DNA of 64,000 nt from Eledone cirrhosa (Eukaryota): the NCBI GenBank assembly GCA_964016885.1, contig OZ024745.1, forward strand, positions 27,218,001-27,282,000. Reading direction: 5' to 3'. Position numbers and translations under genes: made by a program. The notes beneath the pieces are model-generated. The model was not told the origin of the DNA and searched no databases. It saw only the letters and a program-made list of their open reading frames with translations. Positions 3,196-64,000 of this stretch are shown here, piece after piece. Position 1 is the first letter of the stretch; each line of letters starts with the position of its first letter.

Positions 3196-3517
3196 TGTGT
3201 TGACTATAATAGAAAGTGAGATAAATGAAAATAATAATAGTTTAGTGTGAGTACAAAAATATTCTAATAGTTTCTTCTCTTGCACATTTTGACTATGCAA
3301 TTCTCTTCCAGCTTCTTGTTTTCTTGACCACTACAATTTGAAAAGAATGCAAAGCCTCATCTGTTGTCATGTTCTCTCTGTCTAGTCATTTTCCCTTCTC
3401 AGTAATCCCTCACATTTTAGTGGGTTTATTGCTTAGTTTAGGATGAGTAAATTGAAAAAAAAATTTTTTTTATATTGAATTAATAGAAATTTACTTATTT
3501 TGGTCAATATGGTAAAT

Positions 3518-3690
3518 AATTGTTTCTACGTTTGGCACAAGACCAATAATTATCCAAATGCATTACTGGTACTTTATTTTATCGACCCCATAAGGATGAA
3601 AGGCAAAGTTAACCTCGGCGGAATTTGAACACAGACCATAAAGGGCCGTAACTCTTTGCTGCAAAGCATGGTGTCCGACACCCTTATGGT
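3518..3690 (-). mobile_element. SINE family B
   Basis: Matches the recurrent consensus GAGTTCAAATCCCGCCGAGGTTAACTTTGCCTTTCATCCTTACGGGGTCGATAAAATAAAGTACCAGT. Confidence 0.8.
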
Positions 3691-4796
3691 AAATCCACCA
3701 ATATGGTAAATAATAAATCACATTTGAATCATCTGAGATAAGAAGTATTGGCATATTGCTGGGGATGCAGCTACCCTCGAAAAAATTGTCGGAAAATTTA
3801 GTTTTCTCAAAAAATTCTGAAATTTTCAAAAATTATTGTATACTTTGCTCGTTTATTTTAATTACATGAAACATGAAATATGTACAATAATGAATAAAGA
3901 TGTCACAATAATGATTAGTGTGTATAAAACTGACCCTTGACCTATTATATTATATACCTGTCATCTTATATAGCACATTTCTTGTTTAAACAAAATAAGT
4001 TTGTATTTTTTTTTGCGTATTATCATATATCAAATTATTTCTCTTTCTCTATCGATTTCTTTTTCTTTTATTTTCCACCACTGTCAATATATTTATGTAT
4101 ATGTGTATATATATATATATACATAGTACACCCAGTAAATTGTTAGTGTTGCTGCCTTCATAGAATATACCTTGCCAACATGTAAAGTGGTTGTGCTGGT
4201 GACGCAAAAAATGCACCCATTTACTCTCTAAAATTTTTGTCGGAAAATTATGAACGCTTCCACCCCAAAAATGTTAGGAGCAACAGGCTTATGACACACT
4301 GGATAATGTAGTCATAAATATAGATTGTTTGAGAAAATAATTAAATGATACAAAAAAAACGGCATGGTCATGGTTGAAATCCTTTTTATCATAAGTCTAT
4401 TAAATTAGAACGAAACTTGGACTAAACAACTATAACAATTAGTACACGGGCGAGAATAGGTAAGACAGCAGACAAAATACCTTGGAGTAAAGAGTTGTGT
4501 CTCTTTACGACCTTCTAAATCAAGTGAGACTTTACTTTCTGAAACTACCAGTAAAATACTAAGGTCGATTAAATACACTATATGACCTCTACCTTAATTT
4601 ATGGCCTTGTGATTATGTTATAAACCATTATTTATAGCAATTGACTGTTATTACTGTCATTTTATGTGTTTGCTATTCCAACAGTCGAGTTCTACATATT
4701 ATATAATAGCTTAGAAAATCAAGTAAAATACCTCTATAGACGGGAAAACAGGCTAGCCATCCTTACACACGCACACAAATCCCGATCTCTCTCTCT

Positions 4797-4932
<136 letters not shown>

Positions 4933-5002
4933 AGAAAAAAAGATGAAATCGAAAATGCAACTGGAGTCTTATTTTTTAAAAAATATATATATTTATTTGG
5001 TT

Positions 5003-5040
5003 CCTTTACCGGTTTCGCAGTTCTTCTGCTTTTCAAAAGT
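5003..5040 (-). ncRNA. Candidate minimal hammerhead motif, U3-A8 core
   Basis: Minus strand: ctt-TTGAAAA-GCAG aagaa CTGC-GAAAC CG GTA-aag. Stem II 4 bp, palindromic stem III, stem I only 3 bp. Confidence 0.5.
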
Positions 5041-5149
5041 AGAGTTGAGATGGAGGGTCTGTGGTTTTTCTCACAGATGTGAGAAAAATCACAGGTAAAG
5101 GAACCAAATAAAGTTTGTAATCGAACCTGTATCAGTAGAGACTTTTGTG

Positions 5150-15250: not shown

Positions 15251-15734
15251 TTTTAGGAAGAGTCATTAAAGTCCCACCTTCCATTTAGGAGCTCTGTTTC
15301 CAGAGTTAGAATACCAGCAACCGAGAGTAATTTCACTTTGATGAAATTGAAGAAGCAAGCCCCCACCCTTTCTTATATATATATATATAACTTGTGGATA
15401 GTGCAGTTTTAAATCAACATATCTGTTGATTTAAAACTGCACTATCCACAAGTGTTTTTTAGCCTTCATATCATGTCCTCCTGTTTTATCTGATGAAAAC
15501 ACAAATATTATTGCATGATGATGTTTGTTTTTGAAATGCGCATAATAAAATACATGGAACTCCTTTAACCATCTTCTGTTCTTATATATTATATATATAT
15601 ATATATATATAAGAAAGGGTGGGGGCTTGCTTCTTCAATTTCATCAAAGTGAAATTACTCTCGGTTGCTGGTATTCTAACTCTGGAAACAGAGCTCCTAA
15701 ATGGAAGGTGCGACTTTAATGACTCTTCCTAAAA
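15251..15734. repeat. Nested inverted repeats: ~128-bp outer arms (15251-15378 / 15607-15734) and an inner palindrome (15390-15453)
   Basis: Outer arms differ by about one base. Inner element acttgtggatagtgcagttttaaatcaaca tatc tgttgatttaaaactgcactatccacaagt. Confidence 0.9.
15483..15551 (+). ncRNA. Type I hammerhead ribozyme, canonical core
   Basis: gttttat-CTGATGA-long stem II (caaatattatt gcat gatgatgtttg)-GAAA T GCGC ATA-ataaaat. Palindromic stem III ATGCGCAT. Predicted cut after 15544. Confidence 0.72.
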
Positions 15735-20157: not shown

Positions 20158-21550
20158 CGTAGTGTAGTGTAGTGTAGTGTAATGTAGTGTAGTATAGTAT
20201 TGTGTAGTGTAGTGTAGTGTAGTATAGTGTAGTGTAGTGTAGTGTAGTGTAGTGTAGTAGTGTAATGTAATGAAGAGTATTGTAATGTAGTGTAGTGTAG
20301 TATAGTGTAGTGTAGTGTAATGTAGTGTAGTGTAGTATAGTGTAGTGTAGTGTAGTGTAGTGTAATGTAGTATAGTATTGTGTAGTGTAGTGTAGTGTAG
20401 TGTAATGTAGTGTAGTGTAGTGTAGTGTAGTGTAGTGTAATGTAGTGTAGTATAGTATTGTGTAGTGTAGTGTAGTATAGTGTAGTGTAGTGTAGTGTAG
20501 TAGTGTAATGTAATGAAGAGTATTGTAATGTAGTGTAGTGTAGTATAGTGTAGTGTAGTGTAGTGTAGTGTAGTGTAGTGTAGTGTAGTGTAATGTAGTG
20601 TAGTATAGTGTAGTGTAATGTAGTGTAGTATAGTGTAGTGTAGTGTAGTGTAGTGTAATGTAGTATAGTGTAGTGTAGTGTAGTGTAGTGTAGTGTAGTG
20701 TAGTGTAGTGTAGTGTAATGTAGTATAGTGTAGTGTAGTGTAATGTAGTGTAGTATAGTATAGTATTGTGTAGTGTAGTGTAATGTAGTGTAGTATAGTG
20801 TAGTGTAGTGTAGTGTAATGTAGTATAGTGTAGTGTAGTGTAATGTAGTGTAGTATAGTGTAGTGTAATGTAGTGTAGTGTAATGTAGTATAGTGTAGTG
20901 TAGTGTAATGTAGTGTAGTGTAATGTAGTGAAGTGTAGTGTAGTGTAATGTAATGTAATGTAGTGTAGTGTAATGTAGTGTAGTATATTGTAAAGTAGTG
21001 AAGTGCAGTGCAGTGTAGTGTAGTGTAATGTAGTGTAGTGTATTGTAATGTAGTGTAGTGTAGTGTAATGTAGTGTAGTGTAAACTAGTATAGTGCAGTG
21101 TAGTGTAGTGTAGTGAAGTGAAGTGTAGTGAAGTGTAGTGAAGTGAAGTGAAGCGTAGTGTAGTGAAGTGAAGTGAAGCGTAGTGAAGTGAAGCGTAGTG
21201 AAGTGTAGTGTAGTGTAGCGTAGTGTAGTGAAGCGTAGTGAAGTGTAGTGTAGTGTAGTGAAGTGCAGTGCAGTGTAGTGTAGTGTAATGTAGTATAGTG
21301 TATTGTAATGTAGTGTAGTGTAGTGTAATGTAGTGTAGTGTAAACTAGTGTAGTGCAGTGTAGTGTAGTGTAGTGAAGTGAAGTGTAGTGAAGTGTAGTG
21401 AAGTGAAGTGAAGCGTAGTGAAGTGAAGCGTAGTGAAGTGTAGTGTAGTGTAGTGTAGTGAAGTGAAGCGTAGTGTAGTGAAGTGAAGTGTAGTGTAGTG
21501 TAGTGTAGTGAAGTGAAGCGTAGTGAAGTGTAGTGCGGTGTAGTGTAATG
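20158..21550. repeat. (GTAGT)n pentanucleotide satellite, ~1.4 kb
   Basis: Seen directly. It drifts to GAAGT/GAAGC variants after ~21100. Confidence 0.95.
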
Positions 21551-22073
21551 TGTTATTCAATGTATTGCAACGTAATGTAGTATTAAGTACATTTGAGTAT
21601 AATAGAGTTTAGTGCAGTGTTACCTAGTGTAGTACAGTATATAGAGTAGTATTAAGTACAATTCAGCTGAGATGTAGTGTAGTATTGTGTTTAATCTGAT
21701 AACAGTTTTCTCAATTTAAACATGAAGGCCACACGATAACATGATAACAATATTCACATACTTCAAGTAGATATTATAGCAAGGCCACCAATAATCCGAT
21801 AAATCATTGACGCAGTGGACGAATTTCCTTGAGAGGATCTGATCCAGCTCACTGCACTCTGAGTTCGAATCCTGTCCGAGCCAATTTTTCCCTCGTAAAT
21901 AAATAAATAATATTTAGAAAATATACGAAACCCAACCGTAGAAAATAACTGAAAACAGAGTCGACTGCTACAAATAATAGCTTAGAAAATCAGGTAAAAT
22001 ATCCCGTGAAAAGTGGTTAGCAGCTGCTCGAAAGATCGATCTTTTTGTTATAGCAATCAACTGTGGTTAGATT

Positions 22074-22446: not shown

Positions 22447-22498
22447 ACTGTTCACCTACCAACTGTCAGAGCTAGTGAAAATATATGATATTTTCTAA

Positions 22499-22579
<81 letters not shown>

Positions 22580-22648
22580 TATGAAGAGAGAAGAAACATT
22601 TAGATATAATTAGTAATAAAATGTATCATACCTAAACTGCTCCTAAAT

Positions 22649-22738
22649 TCCTCGACTACGTAGTTTCGTGGCATAAACAAAAACAATATATCATAAAGAC
22701 ATAGAGTCCCTGCGAGGTCTGCCGACTTATCAAGAGGA
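22649..22738 (-). ncRNA. Variant type I hammerhead (U3-A8), inverted copy
   Basis: Reverse complement of 23492-23581. Confidence 0.72.
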
Positions 22739-23491
22739 TACCTCATTTTACTAGTCTCAAGAACGCGTCTACACGACGTGAGAAAGAATCCCAAAAGGCG
22801 GAGGGGGAGATAGTCACGCGATATAACGGTCGAGAAACAGAGCTAAGCCTCCTATAACCACGAAGAAAATACCACGGAGGCGGAGGGGGTATTCATATCG
22901 AGGCCGCAGAAGAGGTGGTGAAGAAGGCTAGAAGTATGAGTAATGGAAGCTTTCCAGTTGTCCCCACACTGCAAAGATTGCTCGACCAGAGGGAGTTATT
23001 AACAATATATTTAGAAACACATATGAATACCCCCTCCGCCTCCGTGGTATTTTCTTCGTGGTTATAGGAGGCTTAGCTCTGTTTCTCGACCGTTATATCG
23101 CGTGACTATCTCCCCCTCCGCCTTTTGGGATTCATTGAGCAACATCGGTGAAGTTGGCACCCTTAACTCACAGTTGGGTGCGGATGCATTCATGTATATA
23201 TGTGTGTGTCCGCATGTATCTGTGTGTTTCTAAATATATTGTTAATAACTCCCTCTGGTCGAGCAATCTTTGAAGTGTGGGGACAACTGGAAAGCTTCCA
23301 TTACTCATACTTCTAGCCTTCTTCACCACCTCTTCTGCGGCCTCGATATGAATATCCCCTCCGCCTCCGTGGTTATAGGAGGCTTAGCTCTGTTTCTCGA
23401 CCGTTATATCGCGTGACTATCTCCCCCTCCGCCTTTTGGGATTCTTTCTCACGTCGTGTAGACGCGTTCTTGAGACTAGTAAAATGAGGTA

Positions 23492-23581
23492 TCCTCTTGA
23501 TAAGTCGGCAGACCTCGCAGGGACTCTATGTCTTTATGATATATTGTTTTTGTTTATGCCACGAAACTACGTAGTCGAGGA
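23492..23581 (+). ncRNA. Variant type I hammerhead (U3-A8), copy 1
   Basis: TCCTC-TTGATAA-GTcGGCA...TGCCAC-GAAAC TACGTA GTC-GAGGA. Predicted cut after 23576. Confidence 0.75.
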
Positions 23582-24072
23582 ATTTAGGAGCAGTTTAGGT
23601 ATGATACATTTTATTACTAATTATATCTAAATGTTTCTTCTCTCTTCATAATGTATTTTTAACTCTGATACTGGTTCAGTCTAGTTCAACTGAATTGGTC
23701 TGTCCCGGTCATTCATTGAGCAACATCGGTGAAGTTGGCACCCTTAACTCACAGTTGGGTGCGGATGCATTCATGTATATATGTGTGTCCCCGCATGTAT
23801 CTGTGTGTTTCTAAATATATTGTTAATAACCCCCTCTGGTCGAGCAATCTTTGAAGTGTGGGGACAACTGGAAAGCTTCCATTACTCATACTTCTAGCCT
23901 TCTTCACCACCTCTTCTGCGGCCTCGATATGAATATCCCCTCCGCCTCCGTGGTTATAGGAGGCTTAGCTCTGTTTCTCGACCGTTATATCGCGTGACTA
24001 TCTCCCCCTCCGCCTTTTGGGATTCTTTCTCACGTCGTGTAGACGCGTTCTTGAGACTAGTAAAATGAGGTA

Positions 24073-24162
24073 TCCTCTTGATAAGTCGGCAGACCTCGCA
24101 GGGACTCTATGTCTTTATGATATATTGTTTTTGTTTATGCCACGAAACTACGTAGTCGAGGA
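24073..24162 (+). ncRNA. Variant type I hammerhead (U3-A8), copy 2
   Basis: Same motif 581 bp downstream. Predicted cut after 24157. Confidence 0.75.
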
Positions 24163-24667
24163 ATTTAGGAGCAGTTTAGGTATGATACATTTTATTACTA
24201 ATTATATCTAAATGTTTCTTCTCTCTTCATAATGTATTTTTAACTCTGATACTGGTTCAGTCTAGTTCAACTGAATTGGTCTGTCCCGGTCATTCATTGA
24301 GCAACATCGGTGAAGTTGGCACCCTTAACTCACAGTTGGGTGCGGATGCATTCATGTATATATGTGTGTCCCCGCATGTATCTGTGTGTTTCTAAATATA
24401 TTGTTAATAACCCCCTCTGGTCGAGCAATCTTTGAAGTGTGGGGACAACTGGAAAGCTTCCATTACTCATACTTCTAGCCTTCTTCACCACCTCTTCTGC
24501 GGCCTCGATATGAATACCCCCTCCGCCTCCGTGGTATTTTCTTCGTGGTTATAGGAGGCTTAGCTCTGTTTCTCGACCGTTATATCGCGTGACTATCTCC
24601 CCCTCCGCCTTTTGGGATTCTTTCTCACGTCGTGTAGACGCGTTCTTGAGACTAGTAAAATGAGGTA

Positions 24668-24757
24668 TCCTCTTGATAAGTCGGCAGACCTCGCAGGGAC
24701 TCTATGTCTTTATGATATATTGTTTTTGTTTATGCCACGAAACTACGTAGTCGAGGA
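24668..24757 (+). ncRNA. Variant type I hammerhead (U3-A8), copy 3
   Basis: Same motif a further 595 bp downstream. Predicted cut after 24752. Confidence 0.75.
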
Positions 24758-25624
24758 ATTTAGGAGCAGTTTAGGTATGATACATTTTATTACTAATTAT
24801 ATCTAAATGTTTCTTCTCTCTTCATAATGTATTTTTAACTCTGATACTGGTTCAGTCTAGTTCAACTGAATTGGTCTGTCCCGGTCATTCATTGAGCAAC
24901 ATCGGTGAAATTGGCACCCTTAACTCACAGTTGGGTGCGGATGCATTCATGTATATATGTGTGTGTCCGCATGTATCTGTGTGTTTCTAAATATATATAT
25001 ATATATATATATATATAATCGAGATGTCTTTATTTCGATATACTTCTGCCTGTTTTATATATATAAAGAAATTAAATATGGCGACGCACATGGATAGAAT
25101 TGTAAATATGTGAGCTGGAAAAGACATACCACAATACATGTCATAATAACGAAAACAAATGCTCGGTCAAAAATCTGAGGTACATGTGCATTTTCAAGCT
25201 CATCGCCAGGTTTTGGTGCTCGGTGGAAGGGACAGGTGTAGGGAAGCTTGGGAACTTAAGTTTGCAATAAATCTAAGGTGAAGTTTCAGAACAAGTATAT
25301 ATCACCGTAAATTTGTTCTAAATCTGAGAGTGAACCCTTGAAAACGAGTGTGTGGGCGAGTGGGTATGTGTGTGTACGTGTGTACGTGTGTATGTGTGTG
25401 TGGGGGTGGGTGTATACATCACTAAAATGAAGGCGCGTGGCTTAGTGGTTAGAGCTATATCGGTCTTTGCTTTTTCCTAGGACAACATCGATGGTGTGGA
25501 GAGGGGAGACTGATATGCATGGGCAACTGTTGATCTTCCAGAAAAAAATAATAATAAAAAATAATAATAAATAGAGGAAAACTGTCTGCCCTTCCCAGCC
25601 AAAAGAAGGCTGAGGGCTGATCTT

Positions 25625-30420: not shown

Positions 30421-31111
30421 GTATTATTATTTGTTTATCGTTATTCTTTTTTTATTTCGTTTTTGGTGTTTTCGAAAATTAATTTTAAAATTAAGATTTC
30501 GTGGGTGTCCTTCCTTTTGGGGGATTAATTGTCTCCCTATTTAACGAAGTTATATTGAAAAATGTTAATATAAGAAAAGGTTTTCAGGTGTCGGTTTACC
30601 TGAAAAGAAACAGTGTAATTATTAATAAGAAAAGTTGAAATTAATGATAGAAAGATCTGCCAGCTCTAACATCACTCCTTCATAATCAGCCTATGAACTT
30701 TTCAGCCGACCATCGTAATCTCTAAGACAGACTTTTTTCTACTTCCAGGTATTTAGATAGAAGTTCCCACGTCCAATGTTTACAAAATAATAATAAAAAT
30801 AATACTCATCTAATTAAACTTCGGAAAAATGCAGTTTTCTCGAAAGACGCCCCCCCCCCCCCTCCACTAATACCAACACCACAAACACCACCGTCACCAC
30901 AAACACCACCACCATCACCACAAACACCACCACCACCATCACCACAAACACCACCGCCACCACCATCATCACCACCACCACCACCACCACCACAACCACC
31001 AGCAACACCACCACCACCATTACCACAATCATCCACCACCCTACCAATACCCTCATTAACACTATCAACCTCATCAAGTGTTATTCCCTCAACCTCATCC
31101 CAGCTGTTATT

Positions 31112-32226
31112 CCATGGCCCCTCTCTCTACATGTTAAACAGACCACTTCCCACAGTCCATACTTACCTTTCTCACTTCAATGGCCCCTCTCTCTACATGT
31201 TAAACAGACCACTTCCCACAGACCATACTTACCTTTCTCACTTCCATGGCCCCTCTCTCTACATGTTAAACAGACCACTTCTCACAGACCTTACTTACCT
31301 TTCTCACTTCCATGGCCCCTCTCTCTACATGTTAAACAGACCACTTCCCACAGACCTTACTTACCTTTCTCACTTCCATGGCCCCTCTCTCTACATGTTA
31401 AACAGACCACTTCCCACAGACCATACTTACCTTTCTCACTTCATGGCCCCTCTCTCTACATGTTAAACAGACCACTTCCCACAGACCATACTTACCTTTC
31501 TCACTTCCATGGCCCCTCTCTCTACATGTTAAACAGACCACTTCCCACAGGCCATACTTACTTTTCTCACTTCATGGCCCCTCTCTCTACATGTTAAACA
31601 GACCACTTCCCACAGACCATACTTACCTTTCTCACTTCCATGGCCCCTCTCTGTACATGTTAAACAGACCACTTCCCACAGACCATACTTACCTTTCTCA
31701 CTTCCATGGCCCCTCTCTCTACATGTTAAACAGACCACTTCCCACAGACCATACTTACCTTTCTCACTTCCATGGCCCCTCTCTGTACATGTTAAATAGA
31801 CCACTTCCCGCAGACCATACTTACCTTTCTCACTTCCATGGCCCCTCTCTCTACATGTTAAACAGACCACTTCCCACAGGCCATACTTACTTTTCTCACT
31901 TCATGGCCCCTCTCTCTACATGTTAAACAGACCACTTCCCACAGGCCATACTTACTTTTCTCACTTCATGGCCCCTCTCTCTACATGTTAAACAGACCAC
32001 TTCCCACAGTCCATACTTACCTTTCTCACTTCCATGGCCCCTCTCTCTACATGTTAAACAGACCACTTCCCACAGGCCATACTTACTTTTCTCACTTCAT
32101 GGCCCCTCTCTCTACATGTTAAACAGACCACTTCCCACAGACCATACTTTCCTTTTTCACTTCATGGCCCCTCTCTCTACATGTTAAACAGACCACTTTC
32201 CACAGGCCATACTTACTTTTCTCACT
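31112..32226. repeat. 66-bp minisatellite, about 17 copies
   Basis: Unit catggcccctctctctacatgttaaacagaccacttcccacagaccatacttacctttctcacttc, with some 65-bp variants. Confidence 0.95.
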
Positions 32227-32456: not shown

Positions 32457-32857
32457 GTTAGTGTCACCTCTAATTACTTCCGTCTCACCAGACAAGTTTG
32501 CATATTATGCAAATGAGCATCGCTAGCCACTGTTTTACACGGAAAAACTTGCTCGTGAAATTGATATCTAAGTGACTGAGCATTCCACAAACACGTGTAC
32601 ACATAACGTAGTTCGCAGGGAGATCGTGACACAGACTGGCATTTGAAGTACAGATACAACTCATTTTTGCCAGCTGAATGCCAGCAACGAGAAATGAAGT
32701 ATCTTGCTCAAGGACAAAACGCACGTTGGCAGGTAACTCATCTAACCTTATGATCGTGACTCTAACACTCTAAACACTAACTCACCTACCTTTATTGTGT
32801 ATATAATACTGACGATTATATCACGCTCAGTACTTGTTTAAAACTAAGTAGGTGTAC

Positions 32858-35800
32858 ACCACCAACAACACTACCACTACCACCATCACCACCACCACCA
32901 CCAACACTACCACTACCACCATCACCACCACCACCAACAACACTACCACTACCACCATCACCACCACCACCAACAACACTACCACTACCACCATCACCAC
33001 CACCACCAACAACACTACCACTACCACCATCACCACCACCAACAACAACACTACCACTACCACCATCACCACCACCACCAACAACACTACCACTACCACC
33101 ATCACCACCACCACCAACAACACTACCACTACCACCATCACCACCACCACCAACAACACTACCACTACCACCATCACCACCATCACCAACACTAACACCA
33201 CCACTACCACTACCACCATCACCAACAGGGTCGCTACTACCACCACCAACACTAACACCACTACTACCACTACCACCACCAACACCACCACCACTACCAC
33301 TACCACCATCACCAACAGGGTCGCTACTACCACCACCAACACTAACACCACTACTACCACTACCACCACCAACACCACCACCACTACCACTACCACCATC
33401 ACCAACAGGGTCGCTACTACCACCACCAACACTAACACCACTACTACCACCATCACCACCACCACCAACACTAACACCGTCGCTACTACCATCACCGACA
33501 CTAGCACCACTACTACCACTACCACCACCACCACCATCACCAACACTAACACCACCACTACCACCACCACCAACACTAACACCGTCGCTACTACCACCAC
33601 CAACACTAACACCACTACTACCACCATCACCACCACCACCAACACCAACACCACCACCAACACTAACACCACCACTACCACCATCACCACCACCACCAAC
33701 ACCACCACCACCACCAACACTAACACCACCACTACCACCATCACCACCACCACCAACACCACCACCACCACCAACACTAACACCACCACTACCACCATCA
33801 CCACCACCACCAACACCACCACCACCACCAACACTAACACCACCACTACCACCACCACCAACACTAACACCGTCGCTACTACCACCACCAACACTAACAC
33901 CACTACTACCACCATCACCACCACCACCAACACCAACACCACCACCAACACTAACACCACCACTACCACCATCACCACCACCACCAACACCACCACCACC
34001 ACCAACACTAACACCACCACTACCACCATCACCACCACCACCAACACCACCACCACCACCAACACTAACACCACCACTACCACCATCACCACCACCACCA
34101 ACACCACCACCACCACCAACACTAACACCACTACTACCACCATCACCACCACCACCAACACCAACACCACCACCAACACTAACACCACCACTACCACCAT
34201 CACCACCACCACCAACACCACCACCACCACCAACACTAACACCACCACTACCACCATCACCACCACCACCAACACCACCACCACCACCAACACTAACACC
34301 ACCACTACCACCATCACCACCACCACCAACACCACCACCACCACCAACACTAACACCACCACTACCACCATCACCACCACCACCAACACCACCACCACCA
34401 CCAACACTAACACCACCACTACCACCACCACCAACACTAACACCGTCGCTACTACCACCACCAACACTAACACCACTACTACCACCATCACCACCACCAC
34501 CAACACCAACACCACCACCAACACTAACACCACCACTACCACCATCACCACCACCACCAACACCACCACCACCACCAACACTAACACCACCACTACCACC
34601 ATCACCACCACCACCAACACCACCACCACCACCAACACTAACACCACCACTACCACCATCACCACCACCACCAACACCACCACCACCACCAACACTAACA
34701 CCACTACTACCACCATCACCACCACCACCAACACCAACACCACCACCAACACTAACACCACCACTACCACCATCACCACCACCACCAACACCACCACCAC
34801 CACCAACACTAACACCACCACTACCACCATCACCACCACCACCAACACCACCACCACCACCAACACTAACACCACCACTACCACCATCACCACCACCACC
34901 AACACCACCACCACCACCAACACTAACACCACCACTACCACCACCACCAACACTAACACCGTCGCTACTACCACCACCAACACTAACACCACTACTACCA
35001 CCATCACCACCACCACCAACACCAACACCACCACCAACACTAACACCACCACTACCACCATCACCACCACCACCAACACCACCACCACCACCAACACTAA
35101 CACCACCACTACCACCATCACCACCACCACCAACACCACCACCACCACCAACACTAACACCACCACTACCACCATCACCACCACCACCAACACCACCACC
35201 ACCACCAACACTAACACCACCACTACCACCATCACCACCACCACTAACACCGTCGCTACTACCATCACCGACACTAGCACCACTACTACCACTACCACCA
35301 CCACCACCATCACCAACACTAACACCACCACTACCACCACCACCACCACTAACACCGTCGCTACTACCATCACCGACACTAGCACCACTACTACCACTAC
35401 CACCACCACTAACACCGTCGCTACTACCATCACCGACACTAGCACCACTACTACCACTACCACCACCACCACCATCACCAACACTAACACCACCACTACC
35501 ACCACCACCAACACTAACACCGTCGCTACTACCACCACCACCACTAACACCACTACTACCAACACCACCACCAACACTAACACTACCACTACCACTACTA
35601 CCACCACCAACACTAACACCGTCGCTACTACCATCACCAACACTAGCACCACTACCACTACCACCACCACCACCAACACTAACACCGCCGCTACTAGCAT
35701 CACCAACACTACCACTACCACCATCACCACCACCACCAACAACACTACCACTACCACCATCACCACCACCACCAACAACACTACCACTACCACCATCACC

Positions 35801-38207
35801 ACCACCACCAACAACACTACCACTACCACCATCACCACCATCACCAACACTAACACCACCACTACCACTACCACCATCACCAACAGGGTCGCTACTACCA
35901 CCACCAACACTAACACCACTACTACCACTACCACCACCAACACCACCACCACTACCACTACCACCATCACCAACAGGGTCGCTACTACCACCACCAACAC
36001 TAACACCACTACTACCACCATCACCACCACCACCACCACTAACACCGTCGCTACTACCATCACCGACACTAGCACCACTACTACCACTACCACCACCACC
36101 ACCATCACCAACACTAACACCACCACCAACACTAACACCACCACTACCACCACCACCAACACTAACACCGTCGCTACTACCACCACCAACACTAACACCA
36201 CTACTACCACCATCACCACCACCACCAACACCAACACCACCACCAACACTAACACCACCACTACCACCATCACCACCACCACCACCACTAACACCGTCGC
36301 TACTACCATCACCGACACTAGCACCACTACTACCACTACCACCACCACCACCATCACCAACACTAACACCACCACCAACACTAACACCACCACTACCACT
36401 ACCACCATCACCAACAGGGTCGCTACTACCACCACCAACACTAACACCACTACTACCACCATCACCACCACCACCAACACCAACACCACCACCAACACTA
36501 ACACCACCACTACCACCATCACCACCACCACCAACACCACCACCACCACCAACACTAACACCACCACTACCACCATCACCACCACCACCAACACCACCAC
36601 CACCACCAACACCACCACCACCACTACCACCACCACCAACACTAACACCGTCGCTACTACCACCACCAACACTAACACCACTACTACCACCATCACCACC
36701 ACCACCAACACCAACACCACCACCAACACTAACACCACCACTACCACCACCACCAACACTAACACCACCACTACCACCATCACCACCACCACCAACACCA
36801 CCACCACCACCAACACTAACACCACCACTACCACCATCACCACCACCACCAACACCACCACCACCACCAACACTAACACCACCACTACCACCATCACCAC
36901 CACCACCAACACCACCACCACCACCAACACTAACACCACCACTACCACCATCACCACCACCACCACCACCACCACCACCACCAACACTAACACCACCACT
37001 ACCACCATCACCACCACCACTAACACCGTCGCTACTACCATCACCAACACTAACACCACTACTACCACCATCACCACCACCACCAACACCAACACTAACA
37101 CCACCACTACCACCACCACCACCACTAACACCGTCGCTACTACCATCACCGACACTAGCACCACTACTACCACTACCACCACCACCAACACTAACACCGT
37201 CGCTACTACCATCACCGACACTAGCACCACTACTGCCACTACCACCACCACCACCATCACCAACACTAACACCACCACTACCACCACCACCAACACTAAC
37301 ACCGTCGCTACTACCACCACCACCACTAACACCACTACTACCAACACCACCACCAACACTAACACTACCACTACCACTACTACCACCACCAACACTAACA
37401 CCGTCGCTACTACCATCACCAACACTAGCACCACTACCACTACCACCACCACCACCACCACCAACACTAACACCGCCGCTACTAGCATCACCAACACTAC
37501 CACTACCACCACCAACACCACCACCAACACTAACACCGCCGCTACTAGCATCACCAACACTACCACTACCACCACCAACACCACCACCAACACTAACACC
37601 GTCGCTACTACCACCACCACCACTAACACCACTACTACCAACACCACCACCAACACTAACACCGTCGCTACTACCACCACCACCACTAACACCACTACTA
37701 CCAACACCACCACCAACACTAACACCGTCGCTACTACCACCACCACCACTAACACCACTACTACCAACACCACCACTAACACCACTACTACCAACACCAC
37801 CACCAACACTAACACCGTCGCTACTACCACCACCACCACTAACACCACTACTACCAACACCACCACCAACACTAACACCACTACTACCAACACCACCACC
37901 AACACTAACACCGTCGCTACTACCACCACCACCACTAACACCACTACTACCAACACCACCACCAACACTAACACCGTCGCTACTACCACCACCACCACTA
38001 ACACCACTACTACCAACACCACCACCAACACTAACACCACTACTACCAACACCACCACCAACACTAACACCGTCGCTACTACCACCACCACCACTAACAC
38101 CACTACTACCAACACCATCACCAACACTACCACCAGCACTACCACCAGGAACAATACCATCACCACGACTATTACCACCGACACCGACAATAACACACCA
38201 CCACCGT
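32858..38207. repeat. 5.3-kb ACC-based triplet satellite with higher-order blocks
   Basis: ACC/ACT/AAC/ATC triplets with recurrent GTCGCT and AGGGTC markers. Confidence 0.93.
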
Positions 38208-57740: not shown

Positions 57741-60700
57741 GACTGTTACACTAACGCAGTGTTTCACAGATGGTCTCAGAACTCTGGTTACACTAACGCA
57801 GTGTTTCACAGATGGTCTCAGAACTCTGGTTACACGAACGCAGTGTTTCACAGATGGTCTCAGAACTCTAGACACACTAAAGCAGTGTTTCACAGATGGT
57901 CTCAGAACTCTGGTTACACTAACACAGTGTTTCACAGATGGTCTAAGAACTCTGGTTACACTAACACAGTGTTTCACAGATGGTCTCAGAACTCTAGTCA
58001 CACTAAAGCAGTGTTTCACAGATGGTCTCAGAACTCTGGTTACACTAACACAGTGTTTCACAGATGGTCTCAGAACTCTGGTTACTCAAACACAGTGTTT
58101 CACAGATGGTCTCAGAACTCTGGTTACACTAACGCAGTGTTTCACAGATGGTCTCAGAACTCTGGTTACACTAACACAGTGTTTCACAGATGGTCTTAGA
58201 ACTCTGGTTACACTAACGCAGTGTTTCACAGATGGTCTCAGAACTCTGGTTACTCTAACACAGTGTTTCACAGATGGTCTCAGAACTCTGGTCACACTAA
58301 CACAGTGTTTCACAGATGGTCTTAGAACTCTGGTTACACTAACGCAGTGTTTCACAGATGGTCTCAGAACTCTGGTTACTCTAACACAGTGTTTCACAGA
58401 TGGTCTCAGAACTCTGGTTACACTAACACAGTGTTTCACAGATGGTCTTAGAACTCTGGTTACACTAACGCAGTGTTTCACAGATAGTCTCAGAACTCTA
58501 GTCACACTAACACAGTGTTTCACAGATGGTCTCAGAACTCTGGTTACTCTAACACAGTGTTTCACAGATGGTCTCAGAACTCTGGTTACTCTAACACAGT
58601 GTTTCACAGATGGTCTCAGAACTCTGGTTACACTAACACAGTGTTTCACAGATGGTCTCAGAACTCTGGTTACACTAACACAGTGTTTCACAGATGGTCT
58701 CAGAACTCTGGTTACACTAACACAGTGTTTCACAGATGGTCTCAGAACTCTGGTTACACTAACGCAGTGTTTCACAGATGGTCTCAGAACTCTGGTTACA
58801 CTAAAGCAGTGTTTCACAGATGGTCTCAGAACTCTGGTTACTCTAAAGCAGTGTTTCCCAGATGGTCTCAGAACTCTGGTTACTCTAACACAGTGTTTCA
58901 CAGATGGTCTCAGAACTCTGGTTACTCTAAAGCAGTGTTTCACAGATGGTCTCAGAACTCTGGTTACTCTAAAGCAGTGTTTCCCAGATGGTCTCAGAAC
59001 TCTGGTTACACTCACACAGTGTTTCACAGATGGTCTCAGAACTCTACACACTAAAACAGTGTTTCACAGATGGTCTCAGAACTCTGGTTACTCTAAAGCA
59101 GTGTTTCACAGATGGTCTCAGAACTCTGGTTACTCTAAAGCAGTGTTTCCCAGATGGTCTCAGAACTCTGGTTACACTAACACAGTGTTTCACAGATGGT
59201 CTCAGAACTCTGGTTACACTAACACAGTGTTTCACAGATGGTCTTAGAACTCTGGTTACTCTAAAGCAGTGTTTCACAGATGGTCTCAGAACTCTGGTTA
59301 CACTAACACAGTGTTTCACAGATGGTCTCAGAACACTGATTACTCTAACACAGTGTTTCACAGATGGTCTCAGAACTCTAGTTACTCTAAAGCAGTGTTT
59401 CACAGATGGTCTCAGAACTCTGGTTACTCTAAAGCAGTGTTTCCCAGATGGTCTCAGAACTCTGGTTACTCTAACACAGTGTTTCACAGATGGTCTCAGA
59501 ACTCTGGTTACACTAACACAGTGTTTCACAGATGGTCTCAGAACTCTGGTTACACTAACACAGTGTTTCACAGATGGTCTTAGAACTCTGGTTACTCTAA
59601 AGCAGTGTTTCCCAGATGGTCTCAGAACTCTGGTTACACTCACACAGTGTTTCACAGATGGTCTCAGAACTCTACACACTAAAACAGTGTTTCACAGATG
59701 GTCTCAGAACTCTGGTTACTCTAAAGCAGTGTTTCACAGATGGTCTCAGAACTCTGGTTACTCTAAAGCAGTGTTTCCCAGATGGTCTCAGAACTCTGGT
59801 TACACTAACACAGTGTTTCACAGATGGTCTCAGAACTCTGGTTACACTAACACAGTGTTTCACAGATGGTCTTAGAACTCTGGTTACTCTAAAGCAGTGT
59901 TTCACAGATGGTCTCAGAACTCTGGTTACACTAACACAGTGTTTCACAGATGGTCTCAGAACACTGATTACTCTAACACAGTGTTTCACAGATGGTCTCA
60001 GAACTCTGGTTACTCTAAAGCAGTGTTTCACAGATGGTCTCAGAACTCTGGTTACTCTAAAGCAGTGTTTCCCAGATGGTCTCAGAACTCTGGTTACTCT
60101 AACACAGTGTTTCACAGATGGTCTCAGAACTCTGGTTACACTAACACAGTGTTTCACAGATGGTCTCAGAACTCTGGTTACACTAACACAGTGTTTCACA
60201 GATGGTCTTAGAACTCTGGTTACTCTAAAGCAGTGTTTCACAGATGGTCTCAGAACTCTGGTTACACTAACACGGTGTTTCACAGATGGTCTTAGAACTC
60301 TGGTTACACTAACACAGTGTTTCACAGATGGACTCAGAACTCTGGTTACACTAACACAGTGTTTCACAGATGGTCTTAGAACTCTGGTTACACTAACACA
60401 GTGTTTCACAGATGGTCTCAGAACTCTGGTTACACTAACACAGTGTTTCACAGATGGTCTCAGAACTCTGGTTACACTAACACAGTGTTTCACAGATGGT
60501 CTTAGAACTCTGGTTACACTAACACAGTGTTTCACAGATGGTCTCAGAACTCTGGTTACACTAACACAGTGTTTCACAGATGGTCTTAGAACTCTGGTTA
60601 CACTAACACAGTGTTTCACAGATGGTCTTAGAACTCTGGTTACACTAACACAGTGTTTCACAGATGGTCTCAGATCTCTGGTTACACTAACATAGTGTTT

Positions 60701-63700
60701 CATAGATGGTCTCAGAACTCTGGTCACACTAACGCAGTGTTTCACAGATGGTCTCAGAACTCTGGTCACACTAACGCAGTATTTCACAGATTGTCTTAGA
60801 ACTCTGGTTACTCTAAAGCAGTGTTTCACAGATGCTCTTAGAACTCTGGTTACACTAACACAGTGTTTCACAGATGATCTCAGAACTCTACACACTAAAA
60901 CAGTGTTTCACAGATGGTCTCAGAACTCTGGTTACTCTAAAGCAGTGTTTCACAGATGGTCTCAGAACTCTGGTTACACTAACGCAGTGTTTCACAGATG
61001 GTCTCAGAACTCTGGTTACACTAAAGCAGTGTTTCACAGATGGTCTCAGAACTCTGGTTACTCTAAAGCAGTGTTTCACAGATGGTCTCAGAACTCTGAT
61101 TACTCTAACACAGTGTTTCACAGATGGTCTCAGAACTCTGGTTACTCTAAAGCAGTGTTTCACAGATGGTCTCAGAACTCTGGTTACTCAAACACAGTGT
61201 TTCACAGATGGTCTCAGAACTCTGGTTATTCTAAAGCAGTGTTTCACAGATGGTCTCAGAACTCTGGTTACTCAAACACAGTGTTTCACAGATGGTCTCA
61301 GAACTCTGGTTACACTAACGCAGTGTTTCACAGATGGTCTCAGAACTCTGGTTACACTAACACAGTGTTTCACAGATGGTCTTAGAACTCTGGTTACACT
61401 AACGCAGTGTTTCACAGATGGTCTCAGAACTCTGGTTACTCTAACACAGTGTTTCACAGATGGTCTCAGAACTCTGGTCACACTAACACAGTGTTTCACA
61501 GATGGTCTTAGAACTCTGGTTACACTAACGCAGTGTTTCACAGATGGTCTCAGAACTCTGGTTACTCTAACACAGTGTTTCACAGATGGTCTCAGAACTC
61601 TGGTTACACTAACACAGTGTTTCACAGATGGTCTTAGAACTCTGGTTACACTAACACAGTGTTTCACAGATGGTCTTAGAACTCTGGTTACACTAACACA
61701 GTGTTTCACAGATGGTCTCAGATCTCTGGGTACACTAACACAGTGTTTCATAGATGGTCTCAGCACTCAGGTCACACTAACGCAGTGTTTCACAGATGGT
61801 CTCAGAACTCTGGTCACACTAACGCAGTATTTCACAGATGGTCTTAGAACTCTGGTTACTCTAAAGCAGTGTTTCACAGATGGTCTCAGAACTCTGGTTA
61901 CACTAACACAGTGTTTCACAGATGGTCTCAGAACTCTGGTTACACTAACGCAGTGTTTCACAGATGGTCTCAGAACTCTGGTTACACTAACACAGTGTTT
62001 CACAGATGGTCTCAGAACTCTGGTTACTCTAAAGCAGTGTTTCATAGATGGTCTCAGAACTCTGGTTACACTAACGCAGTGTTTCACAGATGGTCTCAGA
62101 ACTCATGGGTCCACTAACACAGTGTTTCACAGATGGTCTTAGGACTCTGGTTACTCTAAAGCAGTGTTTCACAGATGGTCCCAGAACTCTGGTTACACTA
62201 ACGCAGTGTTTCACAGATGCTCTTAGAACTCTGGTTACACTAACACAGTGTTTCACAGATGGTCTCAGAACTCTACACACTAAAACAGTGTTTCACAGAT
62301 GGTCTCAGAACTCTGGTTAATCTAAAGCAGTGTTTCCCAGATGGTCTCAGAACTCTGGTTACACTAACACAGTGTTTCACAGATGGTCTCAGAACTCTGG
62401 TTACACTAACACAGTGTTTCACAGATGGTCTCAGAACACTGATTACTCTAACACAGTGTTTCACAGATGGTCTCAGAACTCTGGTTACTCTAAAGCAGTG
62501 TTTCACAGATGGTCTCAGAACTCTGGTTACTCTAAAGCAGTGTTTCCCAGATGGTCTCAGAACTCTGGTTACTCTAACACAGTGTTTCACAGATGGTCTC
62601 AGAACTCTGGTTACACTAACACAGTGTTTCACAGATGGTCTCAGAACTCTGGTTACACTAACACAGTGTTTCACAGATGGTCTTAGAACTCTGGTTACTC
62701 TAAAGCAGTGTTTCCCAGATGGTCTCAGAACTCTGGTTACACTCACACAGTGTTTCACAGATGGTCTCAGAACTCTACACACTAAAACAGTGTTTCACAG
62801 ATGGTCTCAGAACTCTGGTTACTCTAAAGCAGTGTTTCACAGATGGTCTCAGAACTCTGGTTACTCTAAAGCAGTGTTTCCCAGATGGTCTCAGAACTCT
62901 GGTTACACTAACACAGTGTTTCCCAGATGGTCTCAGAACTCTGGTTACACTAACACAGTGTTTCACAGATGGTCTCAGAACTCTGGTTACACTAACGCAG
63001 TGTTTCACAGATGGTCTCAGAACTCTGGTTACACTAAAGCAGTGTTTCACAGATGGTCTCAGAACTCTGGTTACTCTAAAGCAGTGTTTCACAGATGGTC
63101 TCAGAACTCTGATTACTCTAACACAGTGTTTCACAGATAGTCTCAGAACTCTGGTTACTCTAAAGCAGTGTTTCACAGATGGTCTCAGAACTCTGGTTAC
63201 TCAAACACAGTGTTTCACAGATGGTCTCAGAACTCTGGTTACACTAACGCAGTGTTTCACAGATGGTCTCAGAACTCTGGTTACACTAACACAGTGTTTC
63301 ACAGATGGTGTTAGAACTCTGGTTACACTAACGCAGTGTTTCACAGATGGTCTCAGAACTCTGGTTACTCTAACACAGTGTTTCACAGATGGTCTCAGAA
63401 CTCTGGTCACACTAACACAGTGTTTCACAGATGGTCTTAGAACTCTGGTTACACTAACACAGTGTTTCACAGATGGTCTCAGAACTCTGGTTACACTAAC
63501 ACAGTGTTTCACAGATGGTCTTAGAACTCTGTTTACACTAACACAGTGTTTCACAGATGGTCTCAGATCTCTGGTTACACTAACACAGTGTTTCATAGAT
63601 GGTCTCAGAACTCTGGTCACACTAACGCAGTGTTTCACAGATGGTCTCAGAACTCTGGTTACTCTAAAGCAGTGTTTCACAGATGGTCTCAGAACTCTGG

Positions 63701-64000
63701 TTACTCTAAAGCAGTGTTTCCCAGATGGTCTCAGAACTCTGGTTACACTAAAGCAGTGTTTCACAGAGGGTCTCAGAACTCTGGTTACACTAACACAGTG
63801 TTTCACAGATGGTCTCAGAACTCTGGTTACACTCACACAGTGTTTCACAGATGGTCTCAGAGCTCCTATCACACTAAAGCAGTGTTTCACAGATGGTCTT
63901 AGAACTCTGGTTACTCTAAAGCAGTGTTTCACAGATGGTCACAGAACTCTGGTTACACTAACACAGTGTTTCACAGATGGTCTTAGAACTCTGGTTACAC
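57741..64000. repeat. 42-bp satellite array, >6.2 kb (about 150 copies), running off the window
   Basis: Unit actctggttacactaacacagtgtttcacagatggtctcaga, with occasional 40-bp variants. Confidence 0.97.

Follow-up and report, generated by a model that had tools for sequence, protein, structure and literature searches.

The repeat array at positions 22574 to 24996 of the 64,000 nucleotides of Eledone cirrhosa DNA that were analysed as a whole (the window) is best read as one young insertion, likely of a retrozyme that uses the reverse transcriptase (RT) and endonuclease of a Penelope-like element (PLE) and likely copied from a circular monomer RNA, a reading to which we assign a probability of roughly 0.6. 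That the element is non-autonomous and was mobilised by a PLE is very likely. The original prediction of a retrozyme or Penelope pLTR-like element agrees with what was found: the unit is multi-copy and non-coding, and conservation is higher in its ribozyme than outside it.

Between two (TA)n tracts (22498-22576 and 24991-25017) lies a single insertion composed of an inverted arm, a short piece and a direct array. Unit positions are numbered q1 to q595, q1 being the base after the predicted cut, and the full cut-to-cut unit of 595 nt at 24158-24752 (plus strand) serves as reference. The left target tract proper (22498-22573) is followed by the inverted arm on the minus strand (22574-23021; q228-595, then q1-80), which is 99% complementary to the direct array and which has the 'short' fixed end, 80 nt beyond the cut, on its outer side. 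A short direct piece of 116 nt (23021-23136, plus strand, q351-466), with a few shared bases at its join to the array, stems either from a template jump or from a later rearrangement. The direct array, entirely on the plus strand, comprises a 5'-truncated unit (23130-23576, q135-595) with a locus-private 14-nt deletion, a full cut-to-cut unit of 581 nt (23577-24157), the 595-nt unit and a terminal piece (24753-24996, q1-244) that stops at the 'long' fixed end and in which q81-244 corresponds to the PLE 'tail'; the first bases of the right target tract (24991-25017) overlap the element's end. The 581- and 595-bp units embedded in (TA)n are therefore present as predicted, and the claim of a tandem array starting at 22574 holds for the direct array but not for 22574-23021, the inverted arm. 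The 14-nt deletion is common to two adjacent units of the window array and absent from all 56 other insertions examined (see below); the 581-nt monomer, previously taken as a form of the unit, is a local variant and not a form of the family. The unit has a GC content of 42.7%, and the longest stop-to-stop frame within the element has 80 aa, in line with the earlier statement that no credible ORF is present. Elsewhere, the window contains tandem arrays of a 5-bp unit (20159-21551, x279), a 66-bp unit (31110-32226, x17) and a 42-bp unit (57745-64000, x149, continuing past the window end) as well as a 5-kb ACC-rich tandem array (32857-38144).

A scan of the whole window on both strands for type I hammerheads, with any Y3-R8 pair allowed (C3-G8, U3-A8 or U3-G8), yielded seven motifs: three with U3-A8 on the plus strand, one with U3-A8 on the minus strand and three unrelated ones with C3-G8. 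The first three are those originally proposed, with predicted cuts after 23576, 24157 and 24752. Hammerhead 1 (23492-23581, plus strand) consists of stem I (23492-23496/23577-23581), the core with its U3-A8 pair (23497-23503), stem II (23504-23510/23557-23562) with an outer hairpin (23518-23552), and the palindromic stem III (23566-23575). Hammerheads 2 (24073-24162) and 3 (24668-24757) lie on the same strand, and the fourth U3-A8 motif (22649-22738) is on the minus strand with a predicted cut after 22654. All features of a type I hammerhead were found, i.e., paired positions 3 and 8, G5, A6, A9, G12, A13, A14, A15.1-U16.1, H17 and three stems. The earlier description is accurate for the stems, for the core UUGAUAA and for the 46 nt that stem II encloses; the fold predicted for this insert is an internal loop plus a long hairpin rather than a loop. 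A six-base strand 5' of stem I (23485-23490, plus strand) is complementary to 23512-23517, which lies in the internal loop of stem II; a pseudoknot between the two, either stabilising or acting as a switch, is predicted, or the strand could fold back on stem I. Stem III has a folding energy of 0 kcal/mol alone and of -12.9 kcal/mol when self-paired, as expected for a dimer-type motif. The 111-nt region did not fold better than shuffled sequences (z -0.55), and an Rfam search matched no hammerhead in these motifs; Rfam matches to mir-268 and mir-297 scored below gathering and were dropped.

Among the first 100 of 6,664 hammerhead motifs in the genome, the core pair 3/8 is U3-A8 in 99 cases, U3-G8 in one and C3-G8 in none. 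Alignment of 28 motifs resulted in 93.9% paired cells compared with 35-50% when the alignment was slid, the stems being mostly invariant. The covariation that had been suggested as a check was not significant in these 28 motifs (the score was reached by 37 of 500 shuffles), two pairs having changed on both sides in one sequence each and the 3' half being fixed by the search pattern. Outside that pattern, in the 5' half of the hammerhead, the young unit shares 97.1% identity with 20 copies from old subfamilies, compared with 78.7% for q6-500 and 67.0% for the outer hairpin of the same copies; the 40 nt before the short end are 92-94% identical between the young unit and old-subfamily copies. 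At the sequence level, the hammerhead exceeds the other parts of the unit in conservation, which we count as a sign of selection, and the modelled structure probably corresponds to a ribozyme that cleaves. As to the canonical minimal C3-G8 hammerheads in the window (15490, plus; 15892, minus; 39474, minus), they reside in short TA-flanked pieces that are likely truncated pLTRs of other PLE families; the piece at 15490 is a 97% match to a piece in locus L087.

Throughout the genome (3.0 Gb), 7,167 exact matches to the young motif across the cut site and 364 matches to variants of it were found, so that the copy-number search proposed at the outset reveals thousands of dispersed copies. Whole hammerhead motifs number 6,664 and reversed-pattern controls zero, which shows that the motifs in the window are no chance occurrence. 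As the first 100 young-motif matches fall into about 50 insertions, we extrapolate to roughly 3,500-4,000 insertions. Unit spacings of 587-598 nt occur, and older subfamilies, 72-83% identical, have kept unit size and ends. The family is thus dispersed and multi-copy, with a hammerhead in every tandem unit and at least two units in succession, and it has no coding capacity, as judged from frame length and tblastx, and apparently no LTR, PBS or PPT; tblastx of the unit against 46 GIY-YIG loci returned, among the matches listed, nothing besides an inserted copy of the unit itself. By its sequence, the element falls within the genomic definition of animal non-LTR retrozymes.

The unit is also present in six public sequencing runs from three studies, none of which is recorded as RNA among the matches listed. 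Runs X5 and X6 place it in two other organisms as well; in the relative in X6, changes are numerous in the stem II insert and none of those listed affects core or stems, and a 620-nt contig in X5 wraps with a 593-nt period, which is compatible with a circle and an array alike. The unique 5' flank of one insertion, L255 (G000:C4:245560868-245563889), is found in runs X1 and X2 on contigs whose depth (228-250) far exceeds that of another junction contig (about 10), and may mark either a transcribed source locus or a collapsed duplication. A loose end of 255 nt in two runs was discarded after it mapped to the flank of one ordinary insertion. Within the unit, an identical pair of C-rich 11-mers (24518-24528, q361-371, and 24599-24609, q442-452, also found in copies) lies 70-150 nt upstream of the hammerhead in stretches that are 88-91% conserved in old subfamilies, and these are possibly promoter or protein-binding boxes. 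Positions 24180-24259 (q23-q102) and their copies resemble an intron, with a GT donor, a branch-like motif, a pyrimidine tract, inside which the short end falls, and an AG; this 3' AG is not common to the old subfamilies. PLE pLTRs can carry introns.

The fixed ends together with the inverted arm are the best clue to the mechanism and had been missed before. We assembled 57 insertions, namely that in the window, 40 near-identical ones, 14 taken in positional order from the first 30 matches to the young cut-site motif and two young copies with variant motifs; duplicated loci, L125 (an array running off its stretch) and L069 were left out. Inverted insertions account for 37 of the 57 and single-arm insertions for 20. 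In 32 of the 37 inverted insertions, one end is short (q79-80) and the other long (q243-252); none has two short and none two long ends, and a non-standard end occurs in the remaining five. Each of the 20 insertions with a single arm stops at one or the other fixed site, and the either-end rule is kept in eight of nine inverted insertions when the 14 positional insertions are taken by themselves. The fixed ends lie 80 or about 244 nt past the cut, i.e., 164 nt apart, and abut (TA)n in 86 of 88 cases, while inner ends are scattered along the unit. This inverted two-ended layout resembles L1 twin priming, a term not mentioned among the matches listed in the literature searched. A fixed 3' end with an optional tail, variable 5' truncation, an inverted arm and a microsatellite target are features of PLE-type insertion. 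For PLEs, an inverted 5'-truncated copy, a tail on one end and a bias for (TA)n are described as hallmarks (PMC8557442), and the RT of the anole PLE is reported to start at two internal sites downstream of the hammerhead and to extend both target strands in vitro (PMC11167929).

With regard to a helper, the genome contains 10,595 GIY-YIG candidates, of which 150 were scored and 46 loci opened. The family comprising L074 (G000:C1:145869500-145877500) and its relatives encodes RT, a CxxxxCxxC motif and GIY-YIG, and its sequence fits the Neptune/Nematis type by the CxxxxCxxC motif as described in PMC8557442. It possesses a U3-A8 hammerhead of its own (11,632 exact matches genome-wide), and its copies terminate in (TA)n, either 82 or 150 nt beyond the cut. 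Eleven of 14 abutting inverted pairs have one end of each kind, and the other three combine a long with a damaged short end; L280/L281, a further pair of this family 3.5 kb apart, stands outside the 14. With mostly 91-97% identity between close copies, the family appears similar in age to the unit or slightly older. The ends of L074 and of the unit are no more similar than shuffled sequences (527, 726, 224 and 665 of 1000), blastn detected no parent PLE sharing sequence with the unit among the 46 GIY-YIG loci opened, and no intact copy of the L074 family was found among them. We regard L074 as a candidate helper on architecture and spacing alone, and rate the odds that this family or a close relative acts as the helper as about even. 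Many copies of the family (L259-L288), retrieved by a search that required the hammerhead, stop 60-72 nt upstream of the cut, which suggests a strong RT stop there. The window itself contains a 150-nt piece of an L074-family pLTR (4929-5075, minus strand, 91% identical) that spans the hammerhead and stops at the short end.

Linkage of the array to a Penelope RT-GIY ORF, another check proposed earlier, did not emerge: tblastn detected no RT-GIY-YIG ORF in the window, and in the loci inspected, part of them at the protein level, no RT-like frame is continuous with the unit. Several candidates for an autonomous parent were rejected. Copies 2,908 bp apart are a duplication that includes the flanks (L120); for copies 4.6-6.5 kb and 15 kb apart, no PLE frame was present in the stretches fetched; and the PLE adjoining L140 is a member of a different family, whose hammerhead is C3-G8. 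A pattern in which the unit's stem III was kept and stem II shortened had 32 matches; among the 30 listed, L212 is unrelated sequence and the others, judged by the matched strings, are rearranged copies of the family.

The template was addressed through variation within insertions, for which the long C2 array was set apart and two slippage-prone stretches were masked. Segments of one insertion differ by 0.50% within the same arm, by 0.50% between opposite arms at the same pass and by 0.45% at another pass; segments from different loci differ by 1.78%. At sites covered at least three times, the rare allele is confined to one segment at 60 of 66 variable sites. Twenty-three alleles are fixed across an insertion and seen in at most one other locus, and of 156 differences within insertions, 140 are rarely seen in other loci. 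Judging by the low divergence within as opposed to between loci and by the single-segment alleles, every insertion apparently goes back to one unit sequence that was read repeatedly, and the difference between 0.5% within and 1.8% between loci favours a monomer, likely circular, as template. A ligated circle would be the best account of single-unit descent combined with seamless junctions, and we consider a monomer circle the more plausible template. The rolling-circle idea of the original prediction gains from this variation, as far as sequence can tell, with regard to the monomer template; the mosaic structure of the window array, which holds three of the six sites with a rare allele in at least two segments, is not explained by a single circle.

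The most serious alternative, which we nevertheless regard as unlikely, retains mobilisation by the same PLE and assumes that the template is an uncleaved read-through multimer of the parent array, the hammerhead being weak or acting at another step. It draws strength from the scarcity of ends exactly at the cut, about 27 (15 independent matches corrected for the 9/16 visible to the pattern) against some 7,500 read-throughs of the cut site, from the mosaic window array and from the 16 of 156 within-insertion differences whose alleles are shared with at least three other loci. It is also favoured by the report that the main substrate of the anole PLE is unprocessed RNA (PMC11167929). This was counted against the circle model, as were the published findings that the anole PLE can insert in vitro without its hammerhead (PMC11167929), that PLE hammerheads cleave poorly in vitro (PMC4209133) and that eight of nine Xenopus retrozyme dimers did not cleave (bioRxiv 10.64898/2026.07.22.740005). 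Yet units of a linear lineage never coalesce, so that divergence within arrays should approach that between loci, contrary to the values given above; pairs from opposite arms at the same pass show no greater similarity than the others; and the hammerhead is conserved across subfamilies that are 72-83% identical.

Tandem copies could also have arisen at the DNA level, by slippage or unequal exchange after a PLE had inserted a pLTR-like monomer, a satellite route discussed by Li et al. (bioRxiv 10.64898/2026.07.22.740005). Processes of this kind have left traces: the 12.4-kb C2 array (L031-L032, G000:C2:334.19-334.20 Mb) with 21 hammerheads has higher-order repeats, unit variants recurring with periods of 5 and 4, which points to DNA-level growth there; at L120 (G000:C1:338973000-338982999), a whole insertion with its flank is triplicated with a period of 2,908 bp; and the 14-nt deletion is common to two adjacent units in the window. 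These periods, the shared deletion and the mosaic indicate that DNA-level events or template switches act too. As the general origin of the arrays, this route is improbable: 55 of 96 arms are longer than one unit, their lengths are continuous and their inner ends random, and duplication of DNA would share those rare alleles that are found in single segments.

Equally improbable is a scheme without a circle, in which the hammerhead releases linear monomers and the RT, on reaching the 5' end of one, jumps to the 3' end of another. It would likewise provide the monomer bottleneck, and ends exactly at the cut are mildly enriched, with 15 independent ends in 18 matches compared with six in seven at one control position (one-sided p 0.039). 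However, the cut junction is exact in all 7,167 + 364 matches, bearing in mind that the pattern counts exact ones alone, and jumping RTs, as in work on R2, usually add or lose bases at junctions. Since ends at the cut are rare and weakly enriched, cleaved linear RNA is not the main template. That the array is a duplication confined to one locus, or an artefact of assembly, and its ribozyme-like motif a product of chance is highly improbable and for the family already refuted by thousands of dispersed copies of the same anatomy on many contigs and by the unit in six public runs, the finding that no contig piece among the matches listed bridges the inner junctions of the locus carrying no weight.

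For the retrozyme copied from a circular monomer, we envisage the following cycle. An insertion with at least two hammerheads would be transcribed on the hammerhead strand, the hammerheads would cut after GUC, probably as dimers via the palindromic stem III, and the monomer is predicted to be ligated into a circle. A PLE protein would then nick (TA)n DNA and prime reverse transcription at one of two internal sites, seen as the fixed ends q80 and q244. If both target strands prime, one would use each site and the two cDNAs would join head to head, variable join points producing the inverted layout as in the window, and repeated passes round the circle could yield seamless arms longer than one unit. 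A more specific version is tentative and, in our estimation, rather doubtful: the family would be the genomic footprint of an animal retrozyme cycle in which a Neptune-type PLE dimer works on one self-cleaved, ligated circle of about 590 nt, the helper being recognised not by sequence but by structure and by spacing, with the start 80-82 nt beyond the hammerhead cut. The dimer would nick both (TA)n strands and prime each at a different site, 164 nt apart, two polymerases would roll round one circular template, and the pseudoknot that joins the internal loop of stem II to the six bases preceding stem I would switch the U3-A8 ribozyme.

The element shares features with several described systems. 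Like animal non-LTR retrozymes (PMC7229834; bioRxiv 10.64898/2026.07.22.740005), it has non-coding tandem units with one type I hammerhead each, a GC content under 45%, dimers to long multimers, indel length variants and co-occurring PLEs. Its hammerhead differs, being the PLE variant (U3-A8, long interrupted stem II) in place of their canonical motif, and circRNA, a feature of those retrozymes, is a predicted product here. The units are not longer than known metazoan retrozymes, as first supposed, since consensus lengths of 51-972 bp are given in the published text (bioRxiv 2026.07.22.740005), and the implied novelty of the U3-A8 core is superseded by about 1,300 hits published for Schistosoma PLE hammerheads (PMC4209133). 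The retrozyme main texts searched do not mention ends fixed at two sites, arms in inverted orientation or a (TA)n target as seen here: the words 'inverted' and 'target site' are absent from that of PMC7229834, and in that of bioRxiv 10.64898/2026.07.22.740005 'tail' is absent and 'inverted' occurs in a reference alone. It has been argued that retrozymes derive from PLE pLTRs (bioRxiv 10.64898/2026.07.22.740005), circle-templated PLE insertion was proposed in 2014 (PMC4209133), and according to PMC7761336 the helper could not be deduced.

With EN+ PLEs of the Neptune/Nematis type (PMC8557442; PMC11167929; PMC4209133), the element shares a pLTR-type hammerhead with palindromic stem III, partial tandems, an inverted 5'-truncated arm, a one-end tail, a (TA)n target and two RT start sites, and the U3-A8 core is also present in the Schistosoma PLE Cercyon (PMC4209133). 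In contrast to these PLEs, the unit has no RT-GIY-YIG ORF, and its two ends are 164 nt apart compared with the 30-40 bp tail described for EN+ PLEs and 68 nt in the L074 family. Non-autonomous Chlamys PLEs, e.g., MRC1 (PMC8557442), likewise form multicopy head-to-tail insertions of PLE derivatives, but are described as having no canonical hammerheads and a 3' end resembling an autonomous family, a parent of which no counterpart was found here. Neither an insertion signature on a retrozyme nor a template test based on within-insertion variation was found in the main texts cited, and no paper on octopus or other cephalopods reports the element by title or abstract start among the matches listed.

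The family supplies a naturally occurring U3-A8 hammerhead whose stem II is long, a type missed by Rfam, and its thousands of young copies provide exact start sites, an either-end rule and an abundant candidate helper in the same genome. With these start sites, this rule and this candidate helper, the published in vitro PLE assay could test a circular against a linear template directly.
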